Made by a program: the position numbers and the translations under genes
Part shown: positions 1-26,032 of the stretch, piece by piece
How positions within the stretch are numbered: position 1 is the stretch's first letter
Layout of the letters: every line of letters begins with the position of its first letter
Assembly: GCA_031412735.1 (NCBI GenBank)
Contig: JANODO010000050.1
Location: forward strand, 1 to 32,000
Reading direction: 5' to 3'
Length of the DNA: 32,000 nt
DNA from: Rariglobus sp.
Lineage (GTDB): Bacteria; Verrucomicrobiota; Verrucomicrobiia; Opitutales; Opitutaceae
Notes under the pieces: generated by a model
Seen by the model: the letters and a program-made list of their open reading frames with translations, nothing else
Told to the model about the DNA's origin: nothing
Databases searched by the model: none

Positions 1-117
1 ATCAGCCGCGAGATTGCCCGCGGTAAGTTCCCCAAGCCTGTCAGAATTGGGCGGGTCCTCCGCTTCGCCCTCTCTGATGTCGAAGCCTACGCTGCCGGTC
101 TCCATTCCTCAAAATGA
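1..117 (+). CDS. AlpA/Xis-like helix-turn-helix protein, C-terminal fragment (5' end lies left of the window)
   Basis: Frame 1 is open from the window edge and reads ISREIARGKFPKPVRIGRVLRFALSDVEAYAAGLHSSK. The TGA at 115-117 overlaps the integrase ATG (ATGA). The sequence resembles the small phage/island DNA-binding proteins that precede integrases. Confidence 0.45.
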   Translation: MSREIARGKFPKPVRIGRVLRFALSDVEAYAAGLHSSK

Positions 118-1424
118 ACGCATCGGTATTTCAGCCGATCAGAGGGGGCCGGAAAAACCGTTTCTACTCCGCAAAGATCAAGCTCCCGTCATGGCCTAAG
201 CTTCGCGTGATTTCCCTCGGGGTAACTGACAAGCGGGTCGCCGAGGAGAAGCTTCGGAAAATGGTCTTAGAATTCGAACGCGAGGCCGAGGGCATCCTTG
301 CCCCTCGCCAGATGCGCGAGGGAGTAAACAAGCCCCTTGGTGAGCATCTGGCGGCGTTTCTCGCCGATCTGACAGGGCGAGGGCGTTCGGCAAACACCCT
401 CAAGCGATACCGTAAAAGCATGACACGGCTCTTCACGCTTTGCCGCTGGTCGAAGCTCGCCGACGTCACGCCGCGCAGTTTCAGCGAGTGGCGGGGCCGC
501 TCCGATCTGGCCGCAAAATACGTCAATGACCTGCTCGGCATCCTCTCGACGTTTATGACGTGGCTGGAGCGGGAGGGCGTTATTGTTCAAAATCCGCTCA
601 AACACGTCGGCAAGGCTCGCGTCATAAAGGGGGAGGGGTATCGCCGCGCACTCTCACCGGATGAGCTGCAAAAGCTCGTAAACGCCGCCTCGCCTGAACG
701 TGCCGCCGTTTATCTCTTCATCGCCTTCACCGGCCTTCGTCGTTGCGAGATGAACGGCCTTAAGTGGGAGCATTTCGACCTCGAATCTGCCGAGCCCACC
801 GTTTCCTTGCCTGCCTCGATCACCAAGAACCGGAAGACAGCCAGGCTTCCCCTGGTCCCGCCTGCTGTGGCGGCTCTTCGCCAACTTCGGCCGGATCTGG
901 CCATGCCCTACGAGTGGGCTTTTCGTGGCAAGGTGCCTAGCCCTCGGACGCTGCGGAAAGATCTGACGAGTGCAGGAATTGCACACGTGGACGGCAAGGG
1001 GCGAGTGATTGACGTGCATGCTCTGCGCAAGACGCTCGGCACGATGCTGGCCATTCTTGGCGTCCCTCCGCGTGTGCATATGGCTCTGATGCGTCACAGC
1101 GACATGCGGCTTACGATGGACGACTATGTAACCGAGGACATGCTGCCTATGCGGGCCGCGATGCTGCGTTTGCCTCTCATAACTCTGCCGTCAAGTGATA
1201 CACAAAATGTCTTACCGGAGGCACAAAAAGACGCACTTTCGGGGGTCTTTTTAGGGCTGCAAGAGTCCTGCGCTGTCCCTGTCGGTTCAAGTCTTGCAAA
1301 TTCGCAAGACGCTGAAACAGTCGCTTTTAGACACACGAAATCCGCCTTAGACTCTCTAAGTCCGGAAAAGAAAATGGTCGGGACGGAGAGATTCGAACTC
1401 TCGACCTCTACAACCCGAATGTAG
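114..1424 (+). CDS. tyrosine-type site-specific integrase/recombinase
   Basis: 436-codon ATG ORF. The catalytic set is readable: FTGLRRCEM (Arg), HALRKTLGTML (His-x-x-Arg), LMRHSDMRLTMDDYV (His and Tyr nucleophile). An unusually long tail of about 85 aa follows the Tyr. Its last 50 nt (1375-1424) run antisense through tRNA-Pro. Confidence 0.85.
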   Translation: MNASVFQPIRGGRKNRFYSAKIKLPSWPKLRVISLGVTDKRVAEEKLRKMVLEFEREAEGILAPRQMREGVNKPLGEHLAAFLADLTGRGRSANTLKRYRKSMTRLFTLCRWSKLADVTPRSFSEWRGRSDLAAKYVNDLLGILSTFMTWLEREGVIVQNPLKHVGKARVIKGEGYRRALSPDELQKLVNAASPERAAVYLFIAFTGLRRCEMNGLKWEHFDLESAEPTVSLPASITKNRKTARLPLVPPAVAALRQLRPDLAMPYEWAFRGKVPSPRTLRKDLTSAGIAHVDGKGRVIDVHALRKTLGTMLAILGVPPRVHMALMRHSDMRLTMDDYVTEDMLPMRAAMLRLPLITLPSSDTQNVLPEAQKDALSGVFLGLQESCAVPVGSSLANSQDAETVAFRHTKSALDSLSPEKKMVGTERFELSTSTTRM

Positions 1425-1451
1425 CGCTCTACCAGGCTAAGCTACGTCCCG
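1375..1451 (-). tRNA. tRNA-Pro (anticodon CGG)
   Basis: 77-nt cloverleaf folded by hand on the minus strand. Acceptor CGGGACG/CGTCCCG; D-arm GCTT-AGCCTGGTA-GAGC; anticodon arm CTACA-TTCGGGT-TGTAG; T-arm GAGAG-TTCGAAT-CTCTC; discriminator A and an encoded CCA. Confidence 0.9.
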
Positions 1452-3012: not shown

Positions 3013-3633
3013 TTAGGCGAGAGTGTCGGGGACACTATTCCAGTTGGCGAAGAGCGGGAGGTCTCTCCCGCTAATCGGGAGCGGGGTCAGCGTAGAATCA
3101 GCAACAGCGGACTGGATCAGGGATTGCAGGCGCAGGTGGCGTTTCGCGAGGGCGATCTGGACGGCGGGAAGCCAGGAACGTGGGTAAAGCGCGACCAACG
3201 GTTCGTAACCCTGCGGACCCTGCGGGACGACGCCGGTGCGACCGTTGCCAGCGTCGATGAGGGTTTGCAGGAAGCCGGAGGTGAGGTGGGGCAAATCGAC
3301 GGCGATGATGAGCACCCACGGGTGGCGGGCGGCGGCGAGGATGGCGGCGACTCCGGCCAGCGGGCCGGAGTCGGGCACGGAGTCGATCACCACGCGCGCT
3401 TCGGGAATCGCCAGGGCGTAATGGACGTCGGGGCGGCCGGAGATGACTAGGTCGTGGATGCCGAGGCTGAGCAGGAGGGCGGCTTGGCGGGCGATGAGAG
3501 GCGGGCCGTCGGGCGCGGGGAATGGCAGGAAGGCTTTATCCCGACCCATGCGCGAGGAGCGCCCGCCGGCGAGGATGGCGCCGGTGAGGGGGAATTTATG
3601 GGGGAAGTCGGATGGGTTGCCCACGGAACACAC
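3013..3633 (-). CDS. mobA: molybdenum cofactor guanylyltransferase MobA
   Basis: GAILAGGRSSRMGRDKAFLPF, VIDSVPDSGPLAGVAAIL and LIIAVDLPHLTSGFL match MobA motifs. It is the last gene of the Moco operon. The GTG start at 3633 directly follows the tail of hairpin element A. The first six codons are a solo repeat arm, so the start is uncertain by a few codons. Confidence 0.82.
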   Translation of the reverse strand: MCSVGNPSDFPHKFPLTGAILAGGRSSRMGRDKAFLPFPAPDGPPLIARQAALLLSLGIHDLVISGRPDVHYALAIPEARVVIDSVPDSGPLAGVAAILAAARHPWVLIIAVDLPHLTSGFLQTLIDAGNGRTGVVPQGPQGYEPLVALYPRSWLPAVQIALAKRHLRLQSLIQSAVADSTLTPLPISGRDLPLFANWNSVPDTLA

Positions 3634-3640
3634 GGAGAGG
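3619..3640. repeat. solo arm fragment of a CACGGAA-flavour hairpin element, embedded in the mobA 5' end
   Basis: The minus strand reads CCGTGTGTTCCGTGGGCAA. This is identical to the last 19 nt of the distal arm plus tail start of the element at 4825-5036. No partner arm is present. Confidence 0.7.
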
Positions 3641-3650
3641 CTGAGTTATT

Positions 3651-3735
3651 GCCCACGAAACACACGAAATGACACGAAAGAATCAGAGCAAAGGAGCAGG
3701 GTTTCTTTTCGTGTCATTTCGTGTGTTTCGTGGGC
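3651..3735. repeat. compound hairpin element A (CACGAAA flavour)
   Basis: GCCCACGAAACACACGAAATGACACGAAA (3651-3679) is perfectly complementary (29/29) to 3707-3735, with a 27-nt loop. Each arm is three tandem (A/G)CACGAAA-like units. It sits between the MOSC stop and the mobA start. Confidence 0.95.
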
Positions 3736-4217
3736 TAAACGGTTTGGGGGTTTTCGAGGCGGAGTAGGCCGTCGGTGAGAATTTTGGCTCGGAGGCCGCC
3801 GCGACCTTTGAGGGCGTCTTCGGCTCCGGGGGCGAAGGCCTCGTTCATCCAGTGGCACGGAGAGCACTCGGCGGTGCCGAGGAAGCGGATGTTTTGGAGG
3901 GTGAATTCGACGCCGATCAGCGTGTTCAAATCGACCCCGCGCGTGATGACGTTGCGCCGAAAGGCGGACGGTGCGGGGTGCGCGCCGCTGAGCGGCAAAA
4001 ACGTGGCGCAGAGTTCATCGTAGATCTCACCAGAAAAAAACGTGATCTGCCCCTTGTAGTCGGCTTTGTAATCAAAAAAGCGGTCGCCGCGGATGCCGCG
4101 TCCGGCAACGCATTCGACTTCGGGCACCGGGACGACCGGGTGTTCGCCGGCGGGCTGGTTGTGGTGGCCGAAGTAATTATGGCCGGGAGAAACGTAGAGG
4201 TGTTCGATGCGGATCAT
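3735..4217 (-). CDS. MOSC domain-containing protein
   Basis: MIRIEHLYVSPGHNYFGHH, VECVAGRGIRGDRFF, RRNVITRGVDLNTLIGVEFTLQNIRFLGTAECSPCHWM and LRAKILTDG match the MOSC barrel with its conserved Cys. ATG 4217 is chosen; the 16 extra codons of the track ORF are translated hairpin arm. Confidence 0.8.
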   Translation of the reverse strand: MIRIEHLYVSPGHNYFGHHNQPAGEHPVVPVPEVECVAGRGIRGDRFFDYKADYKGQITFFSGEIYDELCATFLPLSGAHPAPSAFRRNVITRGVDLNTLIGVEFTLQNIRFLGTAECSPCHWMNEAFAPGAEDALKGRGGLRAKILTDGLLRLENPQTV

Positions 4218-4240: not shown

Positions 4241-4324
4241 GCCCACTAAAGACACGAAAGGACACGAAAGAATGGGAGCGAAAACCACGGTTTCGTTTCG
4301 TGTCATTTCGTGTGTTTCGTGGGC
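4241..4324. repeat. compound hairpin element B (CACGAAA flavour)
   Basis: The left arm GCCCACTAAAGACACGAAAGGACACGAAAG pairs 26/30 with 4295-4324. The right arm is identical to that of element A over about 27 nt. It sits between the mog stop and the MOSC start. Confidence 0.9.
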
Positions 4325-4809
4325 TAACCGCCTTGGAGGTGTTTGAGGCATTCGCGGATCGCGGGGATGAGCGGCGCTAAACACTCGCCGATGGCGCGGG
4401 GGTTGCCGGGGAGGTTGATGATGAGCGTGCGGCCGCGCGTGCCGGCGGTGGCGCGGGACAGGATCGCGGTGGGGACTTTGGCGAAACTCACGGCGCGCAT
4501 GGCTTCGCCGAAGCCGGGAAGTTCGCGTTCGAGCACGTCGCGCGTGGCTTCAGGCGTGACGTCGCGGGGCGCGGGACCGGTGCCGCCGGTGGTGACGATG
4601 AGATCGCAGTGTTCGTCGTCGCAGAGGGAGCGAAGGGTGGACGTGATGGTGGCGCGGTCGTCGGGGATGAGGCGGGTGACGAAGGTGGGCGCGGGTGTGA
4701 AGGCGGTGAGCAGGATGCGCTCGATCTCAGGGCCGGAGAGGTCGGCGTAAACGCCGGCGGAGGCGCGGTCGCTGAGGGTGACGCGGGCGATGAGGAGGGG
4801 AGCGGTCAT
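4324..4809 (-). CDS. mog: molybdopterin adenylyltransferase MogA (MoaB/Mog family)
   Basis: LIVTTGGTGPAPRDVTPEAT and LPGFGEAMRAVSFAKVPTAILSRATAGTRGRTLIINLPGNPRAI match the Mog signature blocks. ATG 4809 is chosen because the track ORF extension is hairpin arm. Confidence 0.85.
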   Translation of the reverse strand: MTAPLLIARVTLSDRASAGVYADLSGPEIERILLTAFTPAPTFVTRLIPDDRATITSTLRSLCDDEHCDLIVTTGGTGPAPRDVTPEATRDVLERELPGFGEAMRAVSFAKVPTAILSRATAGTRGRTLIINLPGNPRAIGECLAPLIPAIRECLKHLQGG

Positions 4810-4824
4810 GGAGACGGAGTTATT

Positions 4825-5036
4825 GCCCACGGAACACACGGAATACACGGAAGAAGTCGGAAACGGAGAAAACGGAGGTCGGGGTTTTAAACACGAATCA
4901 CTAAATACACGAAAATGAAAGCCTCCGATCTAGGTCCGACTTTCGTGTATTTCGTGTGTTTCGTGGTTAACCGGATTGGGAAATCGGTCTCTGTTTTTTG
5001 ATCGATTCTTCCGTGTGATCCGTGTGTTCCGTGGGC
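4825..5036. repeat. compound hairpin element C-outer (CACGGAA flavour) carrying a second element in its loop
   Basis: GCCCACGGAACACACGGAATACACGGAAGA (4825-4854) pairs 28/30 with 5007-5036. It sits between the moaC stop and the mog start. Confidence 0.9.
4887..4970. repeat. compound hairpin element C-inner (CACGAAA flavour, degenerate left arm), nested in the loop of C-outer
   Basis: The right arm TTTCGTGTATTTCGTGTGTTTCGTGGTTAA (4941-4970) is well preserved. The left arm TTAAACACGAATCACTAAATACACGAAAA has substitutions and a 1-nt deletion. Confidence 0.75.
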
Positions 5037-5497
5037 TAAACGGATTGGGGATTGGTTTTGGTTTTGGTGGTCACGCGGACTTCGCTGATGATCATTTTTT
5101 TGTCTACGGCCTTCATCATGTCGTAGAGCGTGAGCGCGGCGACGGCGACGGCGGTGAGGGCTTCCATTTCGACCCCCGTTTTGCCGGTAAGCCGGGCTTC
5201 GGCGGTGATGAGGATGCGGTCGCGTTTCACGGTGAAATCCACGGAAACTTTATCGAGGGCGAGCGGGTGGCAGAGGGGGATGAGGTCAGCGGTTTTTTTG
5301 GCGGCCATGATGCCGGCGAGGCGGGCGCAGGCGAGGACGTCACCTTTGGGGAGCGCCTGTTTTTTGAGGAGACGGAGGGTCGCGGGTGCGCAGCGGAGTT
5401 CGCCGGTGGCGACGGCGCGGCGGAGTTGCGGGGGCTTGGCGCCGACATCGACCATCGTGGCGGTGCCGGCGGCGTCGAGGTGGGAGAAGGTTTTCAT
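5036..5497 (-). CDS. moaC: cyclic pyranopterin monophosphate synthase MoaC
   Basis: [51 protein letters not shown] and [30 protein letters not shown] match MoaC. ATG 5497 overlaps the stop of the decayed toxin gene (ATGA). The track start at 5533 is GTG. Confidence 0.9.
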
Positions 5498-5798
5498 GAT
5501 GAGCGGCGTTTTCGGAGTTGGCGCTTGATCCACGCGGGGTCGCGGCGGCCATCAAGCACGCGTCAGATTTGAATTTCGATGGCGGTGACCCGGTAGTAGA
5601 TCACGTAAGGGAACCGTTTGGAGAGCGCCCGGTAAAAACCGGCGGATTTTCGATGATAACCGGCGTAGAGTCGCAAGGATTCAATATCGGAGAACAACTG
5701 TCCAAAAAATACGCGCCGACATTGGGAGAGCTGCGTTCGTAAAAACTGAAGCCGTCGAGCAGATCGGCTTCGGCCAGGCTGAGAAGCCGTAGATTCAC
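5494..5798 (-). pseudogene. RelE/ParE-family toxin, disrupted by one frameshift and one in-frame TGA
   Basis: From GTG 5798 the gene reads VNLRLLSLAEADLLDGFSFYERSSPNVGAYFLDS. The reading frame then slips near 5694-5698. The +2 frame continues FSDIESLRLYAGYHRKSAGFYRALSKRFPYVIYYRVTAIEIQI, then TGA (5563-5565), then [16 protein letters not shown]. The GTG overlaps the antitoxin stop (GTGA). Confidence 0.65.
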
Positions 5799-6028
5799 GC
5801 CTTTTTTTGGCTTCGGCGTTGAAGGCGGATTTTGGCGTCTGACCAATCCGAGAATGTGGCTTTGCCCGTGCGGACTGCGGCCTCGGTTTCTTGGAGGACA
5901 GCGGCGTGCCACGAAGGCGGTGAGTAAGCTGCTTCGTCGCGGGTTAGATCAACCCAGAGCAGTTCCATGGTCCGCAGTTTCTCGCGCCGTGACAGGTGTT
6001 CGATGGAAAGCGTCGTTGTCATCGGCAT
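5795..6028 (-). CDS. putative addiction-module antitoxin (CHP02574-like)
   Basis: 77 aa: MPMTTTLSIEHLSRREKLRTMELLWVDLTRDEAAYSPPSWHAAVLQETEAAVRTGKATFSDWSDAKIRLQRR. The L-S-x-x-E-(K/R)-L ... LW ... W ... G pattern is typical of this antitoxin family. ATG 6028 is chosen; the track start at 6091 is TTG. Confidence 0.65.
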   Translation of the reverse strand: MPMTTTLSIEHLSRREKLRTMELLWVDLTRDEAAYSPPSWHAAVLQETEAAVRTGKATFSDWSDAKIRLQRRSQKKA

Positions 6029-6068
6029 AGTTTTCTTGTCTGGGAGGGGAAGGCAACAGCCGGTTTTT

Positions 6069-7259
6069 TTAGCGGCAGGGGAGGACTTCAACTTCCGCAG
6101 TCAGCGGTGTGGTGGGGACGCGTAGGAGTCCTTCGGTTTTGGCGAGGAGCGTGAGGTCGGAGGAGTCGCGCCACGGGAGCGGCAGGACCCGGCGGGTGGC
6201 ACCCTCGTCTGACCAGAGGCAAGGCCACCAGGTTTCGCGCGGGTCGGGGCGCAACTCGGCTTCGGGGGCGAGCGTAGCGTGCACGAGCGCGGTGGGTTCG
6301 GTGCCGGCGAGGCGGGCGAGCACGCGTTTCACGAAGAGATGGAAACAGACGAAGTGAGAGAGCGGGTTGCCCGGCAGGCCGAAGGCGAGGCGTCCGTCGC
6401 GCGAGGCGGCGATGAAGGGCTTGCCGGGGCGGCTGGCGACCTTGTCGCAGTGAATTTTGAAGCCCTGGGCGGCGAGCAACGCGCCGGTATGGTCGTGGTC
6501 GCCGACGCTGGCTCCGCCGCTGATGAGGATAATGTCGGCGTCGGTGGAGAGCGCGGCGGCGAGTGCATCGGCGGTGGCGGCACGGGAGTCGGAGACGCGT
6601 TGTTGCCAAATCAGTTCGGCGTGGGCGTCGGCGAGAAGCGCGGCGATGAGCGTGGAGTTGGAATCGCGGATCTGGCCGAAGGCGGGTTGGGCTTCGGGGG
6701 GGACGAGTTCGCCGCCGGTGACGAGGTGGGCGACGCGGGCGCGGCGGGACACGAGCGGCGTGGTTGCGCCGAGGGAGGCGAGGAGGGCGAGTGCGCCAGC
6801 GTTGAGTGGCTGGCCGGTAGCGAGGAGTTGGGCACCGGCGCAGGCTTGAGAGCCGCGGCGGCGGATGTGTTTGGTCGAGGGCGGCTGGAGGAGTTCGAGT
6901 TGGTTTGCGGACGAGCCGACGAGGCGGGTGTCCTCCTGCATGATGAGGGCGGCGGCGGGGTCGGAGGGAAGTGCGCTGCCGGTGAGGATGCGGAGGGCGG
7001 TGCCGACGGGGGGGGCGGCGGCGGGCGCGGGAGAGCCGGGGGCGATGGTCCCGGCGAGGGTGACGGTGCCGGGGAGTTGGGTGGAGTGGACGAGGTAGCC
7101 GTCGATGGCGGAACGGTCGAAGGGCGGCTGGTCTTCGGGCGCGAGGATGGGCTCGCGTAGAATGAGGTTGTGCGTCGAGGCGAGCGGGACGCGCTCGGCA
7201 GGGAGGGGCGACGGAACGAGGGCGTCGAGGCGTATCCAGAGATCGGCGACGGAGATCAT
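6069..7259 (-). CDS. moeA: molybdopterin molybdotransferase MoeA
   Basis: PPFDRSAIDGY, ILISGGASVGDHDH, ASRPGKPF and GLPGNPLSHFVCFHLFV match MoeA. ATG 7259 (MISVADLW) is preferred over TTG 7280; it overlaps the GxxExxY stop as TGATG. Confidence 0.9.
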   Translation of the reverse strand: MISVADLWIRLDALVPSPLPAERVPLASTHNLILREPILAPEDQPPFDRSAIDGYLVHSTQLPGTVTLAGTIAPGSPAPAAAPPVGTALRILTGSALPSDPAAALIMQEDTRLVGSSANQLELLQPPSTKHIRRRGSQACAGAQLLATGQPLNAGALALLASLGATTPLVSRRARVAHLVTGGELVPPEAQPAFGQIRDSNSTLIAALLADAHAELIWQQRVSDSRAATADALAAALSTDADIILISGGASVGDHDHTGALLAAQGFKIHCDKVASRPGKPFIAASRDGRLAFGLPGNPLSHFVCFHLFVKRVLARLAGTEPTALVHATLAPEAELRPDPRETWWPCLWSDEGATRRVLPLPWRDSSDLTLLAKTEGLLRVPTTPLTAEVEVLPCR

Positions 7260-7759
7260 CAAGCGCGGAAAGAAATCCAAGCTACCGAGCTGGCGACTAG
7301 CAGGGTGACAAGCGAGAGCAGTCCTACGCCGGATGATCGTTCGTCTTGAAAAAGTGATCCGCAGGCCACGCGTTTTATTCCCTCTTTCATGACGGGCACG
7401 TTGAAGTTGAGCAGGAGCCCGAGAGACCTACGTTTCAGTTTAAGATAAGTAAGGAGCTGTGCTTGGTGGATCGGCTGGAACGAGTGGATCGATTTCAGTT
7501 CGATGATGAGTTCGTCCTCGACGATAAAATCCAGGCGATAGTCGCAATCGAGCGACACTCCCTTATAAGTAAGCGGGATGTCGCATTGGCGTTCATAACG
7601 CAGACCAGCGTGGGTTAATTCGTATGCGAGTGCCTCTTCATAGGCTGATTCGAGCAAGCCGGGGCCGAGTTCACGGTGCACCTCAATGCACAAGCCGATC
7701 ACACGATGGGAGAGTTGGTTGATGCGTTCTTTCTTAGCTTCGTTTTCTGGCGTCAGCAT
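7259..7759 (-). CDS. GxxExxY protein (PD-(D/E)XK nuclease-like fold) with a hydrophobic C-terminal extension of about 34 aa
   Basis: LSHRVIGLCIEVHRELGPGLLESAYEEALAYEL carries the GxxExxY signature, and YRLDFIVEDELIIELKSI carries a D...ExK core. GLLLNFN and IKRV mark the usual family C-terminus, after which the ORF runs on to 7259. It is visibly AT-richer than its neighbours. ATG 7759 is chosen because the track extension is hairpin arm. Confidence 0.85.
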   Translation of the reverse strand: MLTPENEAKKERINQLSHRVIGLCIEVHRELGPGLLESAYEEALAYELTHAGLRYERQCDIPLTYKGVSLDCDYRLDFIVEDELIIELKSIHSFQPIHQAQLLTYLKLKRRSLGLLLNFNVPVMKEGIKRVACGSLFQDERSSGVGLLSLVTLLVASSVAWISFRA

Positions 7760-7805
7760 AGAGGTGGAGATGTAGGGTGTGTTGGAGTGAAGGCGGGCGG
7801 AGTTT

Positions 7806-7906
7806 TTCACCACAAAGGCACGAAGACACAAAGGTCGGATAGAGAAATCAGCAGGTGAGATTGTGCACTTTATGAGAACTTTGTGTCACTGTGTCTTTGT
7901 GGTTAA
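7806..7906. repeat. compound hairpin element D (CACAAAG flavour)
   Basis: TTCACCACAAAGGCACGAAGACACAAAGGT (7806-7835) pairs 24/30 with 7877-7906 (AACTTTGTGTCACTGTGTCTTTGTGGTTAA). It sits between the moaE stop and the GxxExxY start. Confidence 0.85.
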
Positions 7907-8801: not shown

Positions 8802-11800
8802 TCACGGAGACCTCTCCACTTGATTGGCCAGCAGGGTGGCGACTACCGGATTACCGGTCGGTGCCGCCAACTCCACGGCGTAGCCTTTGCCTCCTTCGTA
8901 AATACTTACGACTGCGCCAATGGTGCCGACTGCAAAATCGTGCCCCTCTTCGACGACGGGCACTAGTAAACGCACGCAATCGTGCTCGGCAATGGCGGGC
9001 GCGATGGAGAGTTGGTAGTGGGAATCCAGCTCGGTGTGCAGGGATAGGATCGCGGCGATGCGCCGGACGTGGTGGGTGAACTGCTGCGCCTCGTCACTCG
9101 TAAGGGCGCGACCCAGCAAATCGACCTCGCGGTAGCTGAGCCACTTCTTGAGCACCTGATAGCCGCCGAGGGTGTAACTCCAGACCGCCACGGGAACGTC
9201 TTTCCACCGGGTGGTGGCGTTGAGGTGGATGTCGATAAAGCCGTCGCCGCGCGTGCCGGTGCTTGTCTGGCCGGGGCCGGGCATGGTGACGCCGTTTTGA
9301 CCGGCGTAGCCCCAACGTGCTTTGAGCGAGAGGTCGGGGGTCTTCTCACCCGGTTTGAGGGCGAGTTCACCGAGGCCTTTGAGGTCGACGCGGACTTTGA
9401 GGCTGGTGACGCCTTCGACGGGCGTTTCAGGATCGAGTAGTGCGGCGATTTTGCGGCCAAGGCCGGCTCCTGAGCGGAGAACTTGGGCGGTCTTCGGCAG
9501 GGGCACGCGGGGCCAATCCTGTCTGAGAGCCCCGGCATTTTCTTCCCGATAAAGCGGTGCGTGTAGCACGGCGACGATGTGGAAGAACAGGTCTTCTGGT
9601 CCGGCCTCCAATTCCGCCAGATAGTCCTTCGCGAAATCCGTCAGGTTGGGCTGCGGGCCGCTAGGCCCCGATGATTCGAAGAGATCGGACTGCGGTTCTT
9701 TGGAAGCTGCGTCGTCAGCCGCCGCGTGTAGATAGAGCGGGAAGAAATTGGAAAGCCCGTTGGCGAAGTTATCAGCGAGCAGAGTTGTCACGGTGCCACG
9801 ATCCCAGCCGTCTCGGCTTTCTGACTTCCTTGCCTCAATCCAGAAGTTTCCAGAAAAGACGTGTTTCACATACTCGGGACGTTTCTCGTCGAGGAGTTTT
9901 GTGTGTGGATTCCAATATAGCCAACGGGCATCGAAGGGGCGATAAAGGTAGCGGAAGAAGCGACCACTTTCGATGCCGTGATTTTGCAAATCTCCCCTAA
10001 CCTTCTTCGCATCAAAGCGGCCTGAGTCGTCCTTCAGTCCTGCTAGCCTGCCATCAAGCGATGAGAACGATACCTTTGGGTTGAAGTAGCGTTGCATACG
10101 TTCTTCCAACGCGCCGCGAGCAACGTCTATCAGCGAATCATCGCGACTAGTTTTCACTCCAGGAAAAGACGTGCCTAACAATTCGGGGAGCAGTTGCCAA
10201 TTTTCGTAGTCTTCACGAACGCCTATTGGGATGAACGGCAGCCCGAATTTGAGCGCGGGTTTTAGAGCCTGAGACTGCTTTGGGATTTCCAAAGAGACTT
10301 CCAACTCTGCTCGCTTCAATTTTCCCCACCAATGCCGAAAGTTAAGATCCGCGTGAGGATTGTAGGCAGTCGCATCGGTATCCGCCGCACGCGGCTTGCC
10401 CTTCGGTCTGCGCTCCATGAGCGCGATAGCCGTTCCCACCTGAATGCCTTCGCGATTTTTCTCGGTCGAGAAGACGCTTGGGTCGGGCTGACCATCGGGT
10501 GTCTTTTTGCCGGTCTTGTATTTATCGCCGTTGAGGCAGTCGATGGTGATGGAGTCGAAGACCTCCATGAAGCGCTCGCGCATGCCGGTGTGGGACAGGC
10601 CGTCGAGCCAGGAGTAATTGCTAATGTAGCAGATGATGCCCTTGGCATCGGGACGAGGCCGGCCGGGTTTGTCGTCATCGGACTTCGGCACGCCTTCGGC
10701 GATGCGGCGCTCGGCCATCCGGAAAAAGCGGACGTAAAGATCGTTGAGTCCCTGACCCTGCGGAGCGGCAACCGTCTTCACGTGGCGGTAGGATTCGGAG
10801 AGATTGCGTTCCTCTTCTACGGCCAGGCCGGCGTAGCCGTCGTAGGGAGGGTTGCCGAGGACGACGATGATCTCGGACTTCTGCTTCACGTGGTCGGCGG
10901 CGTCGCGTTCGTCTGAAAACTCGGAGAATAGGACTTGGTCTTTCGGGTGTTTGACGGGCACCCAGCCGGTGAGGGCGTTGGTTAGGAATACCCCGGCGCG
11001 CTCGTCCTTACCGTGGTCGAGCTCGGCGCCCCAGCGGGTGAGCATGAGGTCGATCTGGAGATGGGAGACGACGTAGGGCGCGGGCAGGAGCTCAAAGCCG
11101 TAGAGGCGATGTTTGGCGACTTCGCGGATTTTCAGCGCAGCTTGGGCTTCGCCGTAGCCCTCGACGAGGCGGCGGCGGATGAGTTTGAGCGTCTCGACGA
11201 GGTAGGCACCGGTGCCGCAGCAAGGATCGAGGACGACGACGGAGGGATCGGCGAGGCCATCGGGTAGGTTGAAGTTTTCGCGCAGGGCGCGGTCCACGCT
11301 GCCGACCATGTAGCGGACGATCTCGGGCGGGGTATACCAGACGCCGAAATCCTTGCGCAGCTCGGGGTCGAACTCGGCGAGGAAGGGCTCGTAGAAGTAT
11401 TGCACGGCCTCGCCCATGTCGTAGCGAGCGAAGAAACTGTTGCGCTCCACGCGGGCCAGGCACTCCTCGGTCCAGTCGAGCACCTCTTCAAGGTTGAGCG
11501 CACGGATTTTTTTAGGATCGCTGGCGAGCTGGATGAAGAGCGTGCGCAGGATAGGAAGGCCGAGATGCTGGGCGGAGAGTCGCCACTGGAAACGCTCGCC
11601 GGGTTTGGGGTGGGCTTCGTGCCAGAGCACCCAAGCGGAGAAGATGCCGTAGAAGAGCGTCTGGATGAGCGTGGACTGGAAGAAATGGACGCCCTTCTCG
11701 CCCTCGAAGTGAACGCCAAGAGCGTCGGACAGGGCCTTTTTCACCGGTTCAAGCGTGCCCATCGGGGCCACCTCCACGCGGGCGCGAGCTTCACGGGCAT

Positions 11801-12386
11801 AGCTGGCGAGGTAAGTGGCGAGGTCTTGAGGTGTGGCGATACGTGCGGTGGAGAGCAGGGCGCGGCGGAGGAATTGCCACAGGCGCTCATTCTCGGGGTG
11901 CTGGGGATTCTGGCGGAGGGTGTGAACCTTATCCCAGAATTCGTTTTCGCTGGCGGCGACGATGTAGCGTTCGCCTTGGACCGCCTTGCCGTCTTTCCAT
12001 GACCAGAGCGAGAAGGCGCGGTAGTTGGTAAGGAGGATCTGGCCGTAGTGCTCCAGGTAATTGCGGACCTGCGGGGTCGATTCGAAGGAGGAGAGATCCT
12101 TCTCGATGGGTTTGATTTCGACGACGCCGCGCTCGGGTTTGAGTTGGCCGAAAAGGGAGGCGCGGTCGTCGCCGTATTTCTTGAGTTCTTTGGCGGAGAA
12201 GAGGCCGCCGTCGGGAATACCGGCTCCGCTGTTCGCCGGATGGATTACGGCTGTGATCTTGGGTTTGAGGGTTTCTCCGACCGCGTTGAGCAGTTTGGAG
12301 AGTGCGGGATAGCCGCTGGTCTCCGGCACGCCGATGCCTGAGATGCTATGAAGTTCTACAAGGTAGTCGGCGACGGGGGATGACAT
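8802..12386 (-). CDS. single-chain Type IIG-like N6-adenine DNA methyltransferase (MmeI/YeeA/Type ISP-C-terminal family), possible N-terminal PD-ExK nuclease, C-terminal DUF4926-like domain
   Basis: 1194 aa with an ATG start. YFYEPFLAEFDPELRKDFGVWYTPPEIVRYMV is the block typical of MmeI/PglX/ISP methylases. VVLDPCCGTGAYL is SAM motif I and VVLGNPPYDGYAG is catalytic NPPY motif IV. WSYTLGGYQVLKKWLSYRE matches the conserved C-terminal domain of Type ISP/YeeA enzymes. No helicase or Mrr domain is apparent. The last ~65 aa (VRLLVPVVEEGHDFAVGTIGAVVSIYEGGKGYAVELAAPTGNPVVATLLANQV) look like DUF4926. Confidence 0.85.
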   Translation of the reverse strand: MSSPVADYLVELHSISGIGVPETSGYPALSKLLNAVGETLKPKITAVIHPANSGAGIPDGGLFSAKELKKYGDDRASLFGQLKPERGVVEIKPIEKDLSSFESTPQVRNYLEHYGQILLTNYRAFSLWSWKDGKAVQGERYIVAASENEFWDKVHTLRQNPQHPENERLWQFLRRALLSTARIATPQDLATYLASYAREARARVEVAPMGTLEPVKKALSDALGVHFEGEKGVHFFQSTLIQTLFYGIFSAWVLWHEAHPKPGERFQWRLSAQHLGLPILRTLFIQLASDPKKIRALNLEEVLDWTEECLARVERNSFFARYDMGEAVQYFYEPFLAEFDPELRKDFGVWYTPPEIVRYMVGSVDRALRENFNLPDGLADPSVVVLDPCCGTGAYLVETLKLIRRRLVEGYGEAQAALKIREVAKHRLYGFELLPAPYVVSHLQIDLMLTRWGAELDHGKDERAGVFLTNALTGWVPVKHPKDQVLFSEFSDERDAADHVKQKSEIIVVLGNPPYDGYAGLAVEEERNLSESYRHVKTVAAPQGQGLNDLYVRFFRMAERRIAEGVPKSDDDKPGRPRPDAKGIICYISNYSWLDGLSHTGMRERFMEVFDSITIDCLNGDKYKTGKKTPDGQPDPSVFSTEKNREGIQVGTAIALMERRPKGKPRAADTDATAYNPHADLNFRHWWGKLKRAELEVSLEIPKQSQALKPALKFGLPFIPIGVREDYENWQLLPELLGTSFPGVKTSRDDSLIDVARGALEERMQRYFNPKVSFSSLDGRLAGLKDDSGRFDAKKVRGDLQNHGIESGRFFRYLYRPFDARWLYWNPHTKLLDEKRPEYVKHVFSGNFWIEARKSESRDGWDRGTVTTLLADNFANGLSNFFPLYLHAAADDAASKEPQSDLFESSGPSGPQPNLTDFAKDYLAELEAGPEDLFFHIVAVLHAPLYREENAGALRQDWPRVPLPKTAQVLRSGAGLGRKIAALLDPETPVEGVTSLKVRVDLKGLGELALKPGEKTPDLSLKARWGYAGQNGVTMPGPGQTSTGTRGDGFIDIHLNATTRWKDVPVAVWSYTLGGYQVLKKWLSYREVDLLGRALTSDEAQQFTHHVRRIAAILSLHTELDSHYQLSIAPAIAEHDCVRLLVPVVEEGHDFAVGTIGAVVSIYEGGKGYAVELAAPTGNPVVATLLANQVERSP

Positions 12387-12824: not shown

Positions 12825-12945
12825 TTAACCATAAAGACACGGAGGCACAAAGGACTCACAAAGACCGGAAAACTGACGATTACAGCAGAGGGCAATCGAG
12901 GCTGAACTTTGTGAGGCCTTTGTGCCTTGGTGTCTTTGTGGTGAA
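12825..12945. repeat. compound hairpin element E (CACAAAG flavour, 39-nt arms), inverted relative to D
   Basis: TTAACCATAAAGACACGGAGGCACAAAGGACTCACAAAG (12825-12863) pairs 34/39 with 12907-12945. The asymmetric ends are TTAACC on the left and GGTGAA on the right, swapped relative to element D. Confidence 0.88.
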
Positions 12946-13067: not shown

Positions 13068-14039
13068 TTAGCCGCCGATGGCGGTCATGGGGCGGTCGGG
13101 GATGTAGTCGGATTGGAAGGTGTGGTCCTTGGGCTTGTTGGCGATGGCTTCGGTGAGCAACGCGTCGAGGTGGGCGTGGCCGGCGCGGACCGGGGCGAGC
13201 AGGTCAATCTCGCCGTGGCGGCCCAAACAGGGGCGGAGCTTGCCGTCGGACGTGAGCCGGAGCTTGTTGCAGGTGCCGCAAAAATCGGGAGTGGTGAGCG
13301 CGCCGATGAAGCCGACGAGGGCACCGTTTTGCGCGCGGGCGTAGCGGGCGGGGCCGTGGCCGGTGCGGTAGTCAGGGAGGGTTTCGAGGGGGCCCAGTTC
13401 GGATTCGATGCGGGCGCGGGCGCCTTCGCAGGAGAGGAAATTTTCGGAGCTGAGGACATCGGTGCGCGTGAGCGGCATCAGCTCGATAAAGCGCACCGGG
13501 GTGCGGTGCTCGGCGGCGAAACGCACGAGGGGCACGAGCTGGTCTTCGTTGACGCCGCGCATAAGCACCACGTTGAGCTTCACGACTTCGAAATCGGCGG
13601 CGAGGGCGGCATGGATTCCGCCGAGGGCGTCGGCGAGGCGGCCGCCGGTCACGCGGCGGTAGGCGTCGGCGTCGAGTGCGTCGAGGGAGACGTTGACGGA
13701 GGTGACGCCGGCGTTGCTGAGGTCGCGGGCGACGGCGGCCAGGCGCGTGCCGTTGGTGGAAAGACCGAGCGAGGCGGTGGTGGGCAACGCGGCGATGCCG
13801 GCGGCGATCGAGACGAGGTCGGGTCGGAGCAGCGGTTCGCCGCCGGTGAGGCGGAATTTGCGGAAGCCGAGCGAAGACGCGGCCGTGGCGATGCGGATGA
13901 GTTCGTCGGCGGTGAGGTGGTCGGGGCGCTGCGCCCAGCCTTTGTAGCCTTCGGGCATGCAGTAGAGGCAGCGCTCGTTGCACCGGTCGGTGACGGAGAT
14001 ACGCAGGTAATCGATGTGGCGTCCGAAGGGATCGGTCAT
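13068..14039 (-). CDS. moaA: GTP 3',8-cyclase MoaA (radical SAM)
   Basis: RISVTDRCNERCLYCMPEG carries the CxxxCxxC radical-SAM cluster. FRLTGGEPLLRPD and the C-terminal cluster CGTCNKLRLTSDGKLRPCL are also present. Confidence 0.95.
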   Translation of the reverse strand: MTDPFGRHIDYLRISVTDRCNERCLYCMPEGYKGWAQRPDHLTADELIRIATAASSLGFRKFRLTGGEPLLRPDLVSIAAGIAALPTTASLGLSTNGTRLAAVARDLSNAGVTSVNVSLDALDADAYRRVTGGRLADALGGIHAALAADFEVVKLNVVLMRGVNEDQLVPLVRFAAEHRTPVRFIELMPLTRTDVLSSENFLSCEGARARIESELGPLETLPDYRTGHGPARYARAQNGALVGFIGALTTPDFCGTCNKLRLTSDGKLRPCLGRHGEIDLLAPVRAGHAHLDALLTEAIANKPKDHTFQSDYIPDRPMTAIGG

Positions 14040-25794: not shown

Positions 25795-25915
25795 AAAAGT
25801 CAGGGTGGGGATCGCGGAGCGCACCTGCAAGCAGGCGGCCTACGGATTGGGAGACATACGCACGGCGCAGGCTTTGTAATACCAGTTATAGCATGAAATG
25901 AGACTTTCGTCTGGT

Positions 25916-25973
25916 GTAGGCCCGACCGGTGGTCGGGCGTCTCCTAGAAACCCCGACCACCGGTCGGGGCTAC
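25916..25973. repeat. REPIN-like inverted doublet of a GTAG-headed REP (CCCGACCGGTGGTCGGG core)
   Basis: GTAGGCCCGACCGGTGGTCGGG (25916-25937) faces CCCCGACCACCGGTCGGGGCTAC (25951-25973). Each unit is itself a hairpin, CCCGACC-GGT-GGTCGGG. Confidence 0.85.
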
Positions 25974-26032
25974 ATCGGGGCATGCTAAAGTCCGGCGCGA
26001 GTGCGGGTTGAGTGCGGGAACGCCTGCGTCGT

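Follow-up and report, generated by a model that had tools for sequence, protein, structure and literature searches.

Nested hairpin elements between moaC and mog in an Opitutaceae contig: probable miniature relatives of GxxExxY cassettes

How does a complete hairpin come to lie inside the loop of another hairpin between two genes of a molybdenum-cofactor cluster, and what is the nearly identical 18-nt sequence that accompanies each of them? These questions are raised by a nested pair of inverted repeats in a 32,000-nt stretch of a metagenome contig (GenBank JANODO010000050.1, positions 1 to 32,000, hereafter the window), which was assigned to Opitutaceae, near Rariglobus, through its MoaC homologues. 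The pair separates moaC (5036-5497, minus strand, 153 aa) from mog, the molybdopterin adenylyltransferase gene (4324-4809, minus strand, NCBIfam NF006932). The genes of the window were named from the open reading frame (ORF) list, from a 100% match to protein P0001, which carries PF01967 (moaC), and from NCBIfam and Pfam profiles; the C-termini of homologues were also used for moaC. A first-pass annotation, made from the sequence alone, had taken the 18-nt repeat for a duplication left by successive insertions of mobile sequences. Our analysis makes it likely that the two tiers are nested, gene-less miniature copies of an inserted hairpin family, that the 18-nt sequence is an integral head of the element, and that the family is related to cassettes carrying a gene for a GxxExxY protein. 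How such elements would be mobilised is a separate matter, and the mechanism proposed for it below is tentative.

The outer element is an inverted repeat of 31 nt (4825-4855 and 5006-5036) with CACGGAA units, its arms 94% complementary and 150 nt apart, and a complete inner hairpin with CACGAAA units sits in its loop. This nesting, described in the first-pass annotation, was borne out by both the inverted repeats and the predicted folds. For the region of 251 nt, a two-tier hairpin is predicted on both strands, with -97.1 kcal/mol (z = -9.0) in the mRNA sense and -111.4 kcal/mol (z = -7.6) in the antisense. Read in the mRNA sense, on the minus strand, the composite begins with the outer head ccccaatccgtttag (5037-5051), a motif that also precedes non-nested copies, and continues with the outer 5' arm GCCCACGGAACACACGGATCACACGGAAGAA (5006-5036). 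The 5' part of the outer loop (4983-5005) has a weak complementarity to 4856-4880, seen in the folds and in the arm alignment, and the two form a middle tier in which four of the five arm mismatches are transitions. The inner head ttcccaatccggtt (4969-4982), which runs on into TTAA at the stem foot, is followed by the inner 5' arm AACCACGAAACACACGAAATACACGAAA (4941-4968; the intact right arm of the plus strand), the inner loop (4915-4940) and the inner 3' arm (4889-4914; the left arm of the plus strand). The last is decayed by a 2-nt deletion and three transversions. The first-pass annotation had noted this decay correctly; its explanation, a loss of constraint after burial in a loop, is possible, although the matching inner hairpins of two related loci, L219 and L220 (L numbers denote the loci compared), are nearly perfect in the same composite. 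The inner tail together with the 3' part of the outer loop, taaaaccccgacctccgttttctccgtttccgacttc (4856-4888), aligns with a homologous segment in these two loci, and the outer 3' arm (4825-4855) has its counterpart there as an orphan arm. The outer tail aataactccgtctcc (4810-4824), of a kind that also follows other copies, ends at the mog start codon. The inner loop, when read on the plus strand (ctccgatctaggtccgac), resembles the 3' ends of the mRNA-strand loops of other copies (ctccatccgac), and it may have been inverted through recombination between its own arms.

Then, what is the 18-nt repeat? The two 18-mers, GGTTAACCGGATTGGGAA (4965-4982, which ends one position beyond the span first annotated) and GGCTAAACGGATTGGGGA (5034-5051), agree at 15 of 18 positions, as annotated, and contain the inner and the outer head, respectively; the second overlaps the moaC stop codon and C-terminus, again as annotated. 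A search of the window with up to 3 mismatches allowed finds the 18-mer at three places, where chance alone would give 0.02. The remaining one (3733-3750) lies beside a separate, non-nested hairpin at the MOSC-mobA junction, E1 (3651-3750, minus strand; perfect 29-nt arms, 100% complementary, at 3651-3679 and 3707-3735), and matches the outer head at 16 of 18 positions, as compared with 15 of 18 for the inner head. At the MOSC-mobA junction, the window, L081 and L218 all have non-nested copies preceded by the consensus head, CCnCAAnCCGkTTAr. Positions 11507-11522 of L218 match the degenerate pattern exactly, and the head also stands before copies in L084, L219, L220, L173 (the inner copy) and L179 (two copies). 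Every copy of this subfamily follows one plan on the mRNA strand, namely the head, a stem starting from (G)CCCAC or CCAC, and a tail AAyAACTCCGnCTCC. Each arm of the stem consists of three C[A/G]CnnAr heptamers with a period of 9-10 nt, and a short loop lies between the arms. The C-rich head terminates the upstream gene with its TAG or TAA, the CT-rich tail extends to the next start codon, and no pairing was found between head and tail.

The head can also be followed in the encoded proteins. The last five codons of moaC and its TAG stop (NPQSV*) fall within the outer head, so that MoaC ends in ...TNPQSV*, and the head of E1 (3736-3750) gives the MOSC-domain protein the end ...ENPQTV*. Among 120 MoaC homologues compared, the close ones end in ...NPQ[ST][VG] (153 aa) or ...TKQTV (150 aa), the more distant ones in ...KEKK or ...EKTKI (148 aa), and a few pass a lost stop into the arm and end in ...LPTKHTK. 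From this comparison, the ...KEKK ends are taken as ancestral and the ...NPQ[ST][VG] ends derived from the head. The "duplicated junction" of 18 nt is thus best read as two element heads rather than as a target duplication, because the head occurs on non-nested copies elsewhere. The first-pass annotation had itself foreseen that its claim would fall if the similarity belonged to every element, and the heads of the non-nested copies are of precisely that kind.

The junctions of related genomes provide the evidence for insertion. Three close relatives were among the matches listed from the genome collection, and with the other loci the moaC-mog junction was found in five states. It is empty in L002 and L003, in which the moaC stop overlaps the mog start (ATGA); it holds a single hairpin with CACAAAG units in L001, L081 and L086; and it holds a single hairpin with CACGAAA units, the commonest state, in L084, L218 and L224. 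In L219 and L220 it carries only the inner hairpin, the inner tail and the orphan outer right arm, and the nested state was found in the window only. L219 and L220 align almost base for base with the right half of the window's composite, that is, the inner right arm, the inner tail, the outer right arm and the outer tail. The neighbouring junctions vary in the same manner. Of the mog-MOSC junctions, those of the window and L084 are filled and those of L081 and L002 empty; of the MOSC-mobA junctions, those of the window, L081 and L218 are filled and those of L003 and L084 empty. The N-terminus of Mog is usually extended at filled moaC-mog junctions (MTAPLL-IARV in the window) as compared with MK-IARV at empty ones. 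Because relatives show empty, single-hairpin and intermediate moaC-mog junctions, the elements appear to have been inserted rather than to have evolved in place. The search for simpler states that the first-pass annotation had proposed therefore yielded two empty and six single-hairpin junctions, and its view of the sequences as mobile rather than locally evolved finds support. Two other sites deserve mention. At the MOSC-mobA junction of L086 (11590-11625) the head and tail of an element are joined without a stem (ccccaggccgtttgGCCCAataaatccgagtcc), so that the MOSC ORF runs on. Either a hairpin was lost here by deletion at a 2-nt microhomology, or the site is a landing site that is still bare. 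In the mog-MOSC interval of L003 (10915-10965) and L086 (11050-11090), at the position of the window's E2 hairpin, four to five direct CTACTCG heptamers stand without an inverted partner and end in TTTCCG before the ATG, and L003 also retains a TTAGCC foot.

The hairpins of the window belong to a much wider family. The arm pattern of three C[A/G]CGAAA heptamers with a 9-10 nt period was found in at least 120 metagenome loci of very different base composition. Simple hairpins with the feet TTrnC-CAC...GTG-GnyAA make up most of the metagenome matches listed; the others include long tandem arrays and stacked arms. Both tiers of the nested pair, E1 and E2 (4241-4324, minus strand, a single element with CACGAAA units between mog and the MOSC gene) have the inverted arms, the three or more C[A/G]CnnAr heptamers at 9-10 nt and the feet of this family. 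Among the metagenome matches listed, a GxxExxY gene adjoins an arm in three loci. All five GxxExxY genes in 2 Mb of collected sequence stand beside arms, and none occurs in 1.3 Mb of unrelated control loci. GxxExxY genes between inverted heptamer arms were found in Opitutaceae, Hydrogenedentes and other contigs, namely in L213, L214/L215, L210/L171, L139, L208, L221 and L223, with the L214/L215 and L210/L171 cassettes being orthologous. L208 has CGCGAAA units, L221 is a Hydrogenedentes contig, and the left arm of L223 is decayed. A search of viral contigs for GxxExxY contexts gave two loci, one of them useful. The cassette of Actomonas aquatica (L213) is compact, with an arm, 9 nt, ATG ... stop, 4 nt and the other arm, and its left arm is identical at 31 of 31 positions to the inner arm and TTAA foot of the window. 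The cassettes found via the protein keep heptamer positions 1-7, vary freely at position 8 and mostly have A at position 9, which suggests that the sequence itself is read and not the pairing alone. Since full-length relatives of their arms bracket a GxxExxY gene, the short hairpins may be read as miniature forms of the GxxExxY cassette. About 8 of 22 GxxExxY homologues with an N-terminal extension start with arm-encoded MNHExHExHE or TKHTK.

Several observations accompany the family. Arm-derived residues occur in database proteins, at the ends of MoaC P0007, P0008, P0012, P0041, P0049, P0050 and P0054 (...SPTKHTK/...LPTKHTK) and at the starts of GxxExxY P0138, P0141, P0154, P0172, P0194, P0201, P0207 and P0224 (MNHExHExHE/TKHTK); these are either annotation artefacts or real extensions. 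L105 (2754-2860) holds a long direct heptamer array in which CACGGAATA is repeated more than 10 times, and same-direction arm stacks and serial orphan right arms of two unit types occur in L094 (96-221), L098 (1077-1180) and L081 (3380-3440 and 5730-5800). The heptamer units would thus expand and contract like a minisatellite. Matching arms also enclose or adjoin genes other than GxxExxY in L098 (1071-2220), L092 and L180, namely a RhuM-like ORF common to L092 and L098, an ORF of 141 aa in L098, and an ATPase-like ORF of 493 aa in L180.

The window has a GxxExxY gene of its own (7259-7757, minus strand), whose product matches TIGR04256 (1.4e-43) and PF13366 (2.1e-42). In 35 aligned sequences the residues D77, E87 and K89, which make up a PD-(D/E)XK motif, are invariant, and the structure model (predicted local distance difference test score 94.7) has a PD-(D/E)XK fold. 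A fold search returned weak neighbours, with E values of at least 3e-3 and template-modelling scores of about 0.4, namely Cas4 SSO0001, the nuclease domains of AdnAB/AddAB and lambda exonuclease; a sequence comparison with solved structures gave no match. A survey lists the function of PF13366 as unknown (PMC3424549).

How, then, could the composite have arisen? An element probably landed at the overlapping moaC stop and mog start, uncoupling both genes and giving each a new terminus. From the sequences we infer both an order of events and a candidate mobilising enzyme. Further hairpins, or genes, would land preferentially in the loops of existing copies, and the heptamers would be bound by a sequence-specific protein, for which the GxxExxY nuclease is a candidate. 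Deletions between the two heads, which are direct repeats, would later leave a hairpin with an orphan outer arm. Several features are consistent with such a course. A head and a tail are present in each tier separately, and what precedes the outer right arm resembles the 3' terminus of an ordinary loop. The feet of L219 are mixed, the left of the outer type (tttaGCCCAC) and the right of the inner type (GTGGttaaaa), which is exactly what a deletion between the two heads predicts. The layout of a hairpin with an orphan outer arm recurs in L171, L172 and the window itself (3619-3735), where an orphan arm of the CACGGAA type (3619-3637, minus strand) directly follows E1 in the mRNA sense. Nesting is recurrent as well, since L173 has CACGGAA units outside and CACGAAA units inside (z = -14.4) and L163 is nested in the opposite order. 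A more specific proposal, possible but held with little confidence, is that GxxExxY proteins are the nucleases of an undescribed selfish cassette bounded by inverted C[A/G]CGAAA arrays that the protein would recognise, and that the abundant gene-less hairpins, the nested pair among them, are its non-autonomous miniatures homing preferentially into existing loops. The link between the arms and GxxExxY is an association, from which the mechanism is inferred.

Four other explanations were weighed against the insertion of nested copies. If two successive transposon-like insertions had each copied their target, the 18-mers would be expected as direct repeats, each after the right end of a hairpin, and so they are, with a similarity that reaches about 27 nt when extended upstream. 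Yet this sequence also adjoins copies that are not nested, both at other junctions and in other genomes, it is found on one side only of each element, and the comparison of filled with empty junctions at three gene boundaries revealed no consistent flanking direct repeat; a target duplication is therefore very improbable. A different proposal is that the hairpins are not mobile DNA at all and were selected locally in the moa operon transcript as processing or stability signals between cistrons. The window holds six heptamer hairpins, all within 3.6-13 kb, between co-directional genes and oriented with them; single copies form very stable stems (-41 to -58 kcal/mol); and the arms of an orthologous GxxExxY cassette are kept in several genera, all of which speaks for such a role. 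It does not agree with the close relatives whose junctions are empty with overlapping stop and start codons, nor with the same arms in unrelated contexts and phyla. Arm-arm mismatches are about as often transversions as transitions (26 and 33, many of the copies being orthologous), a neutral-looking decay, and G-U pairs in the arms are not enriched on the mRNA strand (11 in the sense as compared with 22 in the antisense). In 17 of 18 elements the antisense strand gives the better fold, probably for the most part because its loops and flanks are rich in G+U. Perfect arms (E1, L218, L220, L173 and L213) coexist with decayed ones (the inner copy of the window and L001), which would fit birth and decay or homogenisation between copies. 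At the gathering score, Rfam 15 matched only a tRNA in the whole window and nothing in eight metagenome loci, and the intrinsic terminator pattern gave two weak matches between 3500 and 5300 against 2.0 expected, none at the feet of the long stems. Selection for RNA structure is thus an unlikely origin, and a secondary use of the hairpins at the RNA level may still exist. Other candidates were rejected: a relaxed Rfam scan gave only sub-threshold matches to plant microRNA precursors, that is, generic long hairpins; a terminator or promoter signal did not rise above chance; and no rRNA lies beside the arms tested, as would be expected of an rRNA intervening sequence.

A serious rival, which we regard as the less probable course without dismissing it, holds that the composite was formed elsewhere in the genome and that gene conversion or template switching, through the homology of head, tail and arm, copied it onto a single hairpin already resident, or that the outer arms were built around a resident hairpin by palindrome-completing template switches. 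It accounts well for the single CACGAAA hairpin being the commonest state in relatives (L224, L218 and L084) with no outer-alone state seen, for the mixture of unit types across the gene trees, for the recurrence of composites of the same layout (L173 and window 3619-3735), and for the two sides of the middle tier, which differ almost only by transitions. It accounts less well for the complete head and tail of each tier, as an inserted unit would have, for the reverse order of unit types in L163, and for the arms that bracket whole genes elsewhere, an indication that loops accept inserts. A chimeric join of repeat copies during assembly, which the single metagenome contig, the known capacity of short repeats to mislead assemblers and the restriction of the left half to this contig might suggest, is scarcely credible, as the right half recurs in L219 and L220, which are independent assemblies, L173 is an independent nested composite, and the flanking genes are intact and in frame. 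Returning to nested insertion, which we favour, a number of points weigh against it or parts of it. Among the relatives compared, no element with the outer (CACGGAA) hairpin alone was found at the moaC-mog junction, so that the entry of the inner hairpin into a resident outer one is presumptive. The moaC and mog trees are star-like, disagree and cannot order the states, with unit types mixed; the only pairing in them, that of the window with L219, is seen on mog only. The left half of the composite, the outer left arm and the second head, was seen in this one metagenome contig only. Mobility is deduced from presence and absence among species-level relatives, and the occurrence of CACAAAG, CACGAAA and CACGGAA units at one junction needs repeated insertion or conversion between copies. 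Neither a target-site duplication, looked for at three gene boundaries, nor a known transposase was found. With regard to the partner gene, GxxExxY is a 125-aa nuclease core that solved folds match only weakly, and it is not a known transposase; other genes between arms (RhuM-like, ATPase) raise the possibility that it is cargo rather than engine; and the window's own GxxExxY gene stands beside a hairpin, not inside one.

The elements may be compared with known systems. Bacterial miniature inverted-repeat transposable elements (MITEs) include the Correia elements of Neisseria and the enterobacterial repetitive intergenic consensus (ERIC) elements, and ERIC copies with internal insertions are known. 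Like these, the hairpins described here are short (85-210 nt), non-coding, bounded by long terminal inverted repeats, co-transcribed in operons and present or absent between relatives, and they have a longer partner that shares their ends and carries a gene. Their arms are 27-31 nt long and 87-100% complementary in elements of 85-130 nt (212 nt when nested) without a conserved ORF. In contrast with MITEs, no target-site duplication was found at the three gene boundaries compared; the element is polar, with an unpaired head on one side and a dissimilar tail on the other; its arms are made of repeated heptamers; and the partners with the same arms carry a GxxExxY PD-(D/E)XK gene instead of a known transposase. 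The intervening sequences of 23S rRNA carry an ORF of family PF05635 inside a long stem. The likeness lies in a long stem of inverted flanks within a host transcript, its loop holding either a small, seemingly selfish gene or nothing, whereas the host here is an mRNA operon or intergenic DNA and the ORF family is not PF05635. Homing endonucleases of the PD-(D/E)XK fold, free-standing or intron-borne, include I-Ssp6803I and I-Bth0305I. A small PD-(D/E)XK gene of patchy distribution inserted between host genes recalls them, but no intron or intein is present, the fold match to I-Bth0305I is weak (rank 31, E = 0.34), and cleavage and homing are conjectural for the GxxExxY protein.

The closest comparison among short repeats is with the repetitive extragenic palindromic (REP) elements, which together with REP doublets forming hairpins (REPINs) and clusters of bacterial interspersed mosaic elements (BIMEs) are mobilised by REP-associated tyrosine transposases (RAYTs) (Di Nocera et al. 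2013, PMC3733652; Bertels & Rainey 2011, as cited therein). Di Nocera et al. report that the TAG stop of a gene is often provided by a REP terminus, that longer palindromes can enclose REP dimers, and that GTAG repeats abound in Opitutus terrae (PMC3733652). The elements studied here resemble them as short palindromic intergenic repeats, mostly downstream of genes, with TAG-supplying termini and paired units that fold into one long hairpin, and dimers inside longer palindromes are a feature of some genomes. They differ in lacking a GTAG/CGTC tag, the feet being TTAG-CCCAC, TTAA-CCAC, GTGGGC-AA or GTGG-TTAA; in their arms, which are direct three-heptamer arrays of 27-31 nt and not self-complementary, whereas the REP unit is an imperfect palindrome of 20-40 bp, with whole elements here of 85-212 nt; and in the gene between the arms, which encodes a PD-(D/E)XK protein and not an HUH/Y1 transposase. 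No RAYT gene was found among the window ORFs scanned or the called genes of the fetched loci, with no whole genome searched. The window does hold a separate palindrome of the true GTAG type, at 25915-25974 (TGTAGGCCCGACCGGTGGTCGGG / CCCGACCACCGGTCGGGGCTACA), whose GTAG/CTAC ends recall the tagged REP dimers reported for Opitutus terrae. The Rickettsia palindromic elements (PMC3733652) enter coding regions or settle at their ends, and host proteins gain residues from them. The repeats described here differ from them in standing at gene ends and supplying stop codons, not in-frame internal peptides, and the sequences are unrelated. By analogy, the elements would be of the palindromic-repeat or MITE kind, with an unusual partner gene, a GxxExxY nuclease.

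The remaining features of the window concern the surroundings of the nested pair. A 16-nt arm motif occurs 12 times in the window as compared with 0.03 expected by chance. The TAG stop of mog sits at the foot of E2, and mog is followed on the minus strand by the MOSC-domain gene (3735-4217) and mobA (3013-3633); moeA (6069-7280, minus strand) lies on the other side of moaC. Two further hairpins, both with CACAAAG units and on the minus strand, lie between moaE and the GxxExxY gene (7805-7905) and between moaA and a type ISP restriction-modification gene (12825-12945; a 39-nt inverted repeat, 87%). The latter gene (8802-12386, minus strand), whose 1194-aa product has Type_ISP_C, N6_Mtase and MmeI_Mtase domains, lies inside the molybdenum-cofactor cluster and separates moaA (13068-14039) from the moaD/moaE region. 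In the moeA-moaC interval (5563-6091, minus strand) there are two small ORFs without an NCBIfam match. L086 and L087 have an Unstab_antitox and ParE-toxin pair there, a module absent from L081, L084, L218 and L224, and the toxin frame of the window looks split, with 5563-5697 and 5601-5912 in different frames. The cluster has thus gathered many inserts, namely the type ISP gene, the GxxExxY gene, the toxin-antitoxin pair and the hairpins. At the start of the window, a phage-type integrase ORF (114-1424, plus strand) overlaps a tRNA gene (1378-1451, minus strand), the usual signature of the boundary of an integrated element, and a palindrome of another kind, a 27-nt inverted repeat of 96%, stands beside the tRNA (1555-1628).

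The nested pair bears on the organism in the first place through its operon. The genes moaC, mog, MOSC and mobA, coupled in relatives by overlapping or abutting stops and starts, are broken up by inserted hairpins, which rewrite the ends of proteins and put stems of 40-100 kcal/mol predicted stability into the transcript. Annotation is affected as well: heads, arms and tails give rise to spurious ORFs and to wrongly called starts and stops, as in MoaC ...LPTKHTK and GxxExxY MNHExHE. The most interesting outcome lies outside the coordinates of the nested pair, in the link between the heptamer arms and GxxExxY. The searchable literature yielded no description of this link and no occurrence of the arm sequence, and the GxxExxY papers in it are not about repeats. 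The arms tie a hairpin type that is very common across phyla in metagenomes to a large nuclease family, with a testable hypothesis for both.

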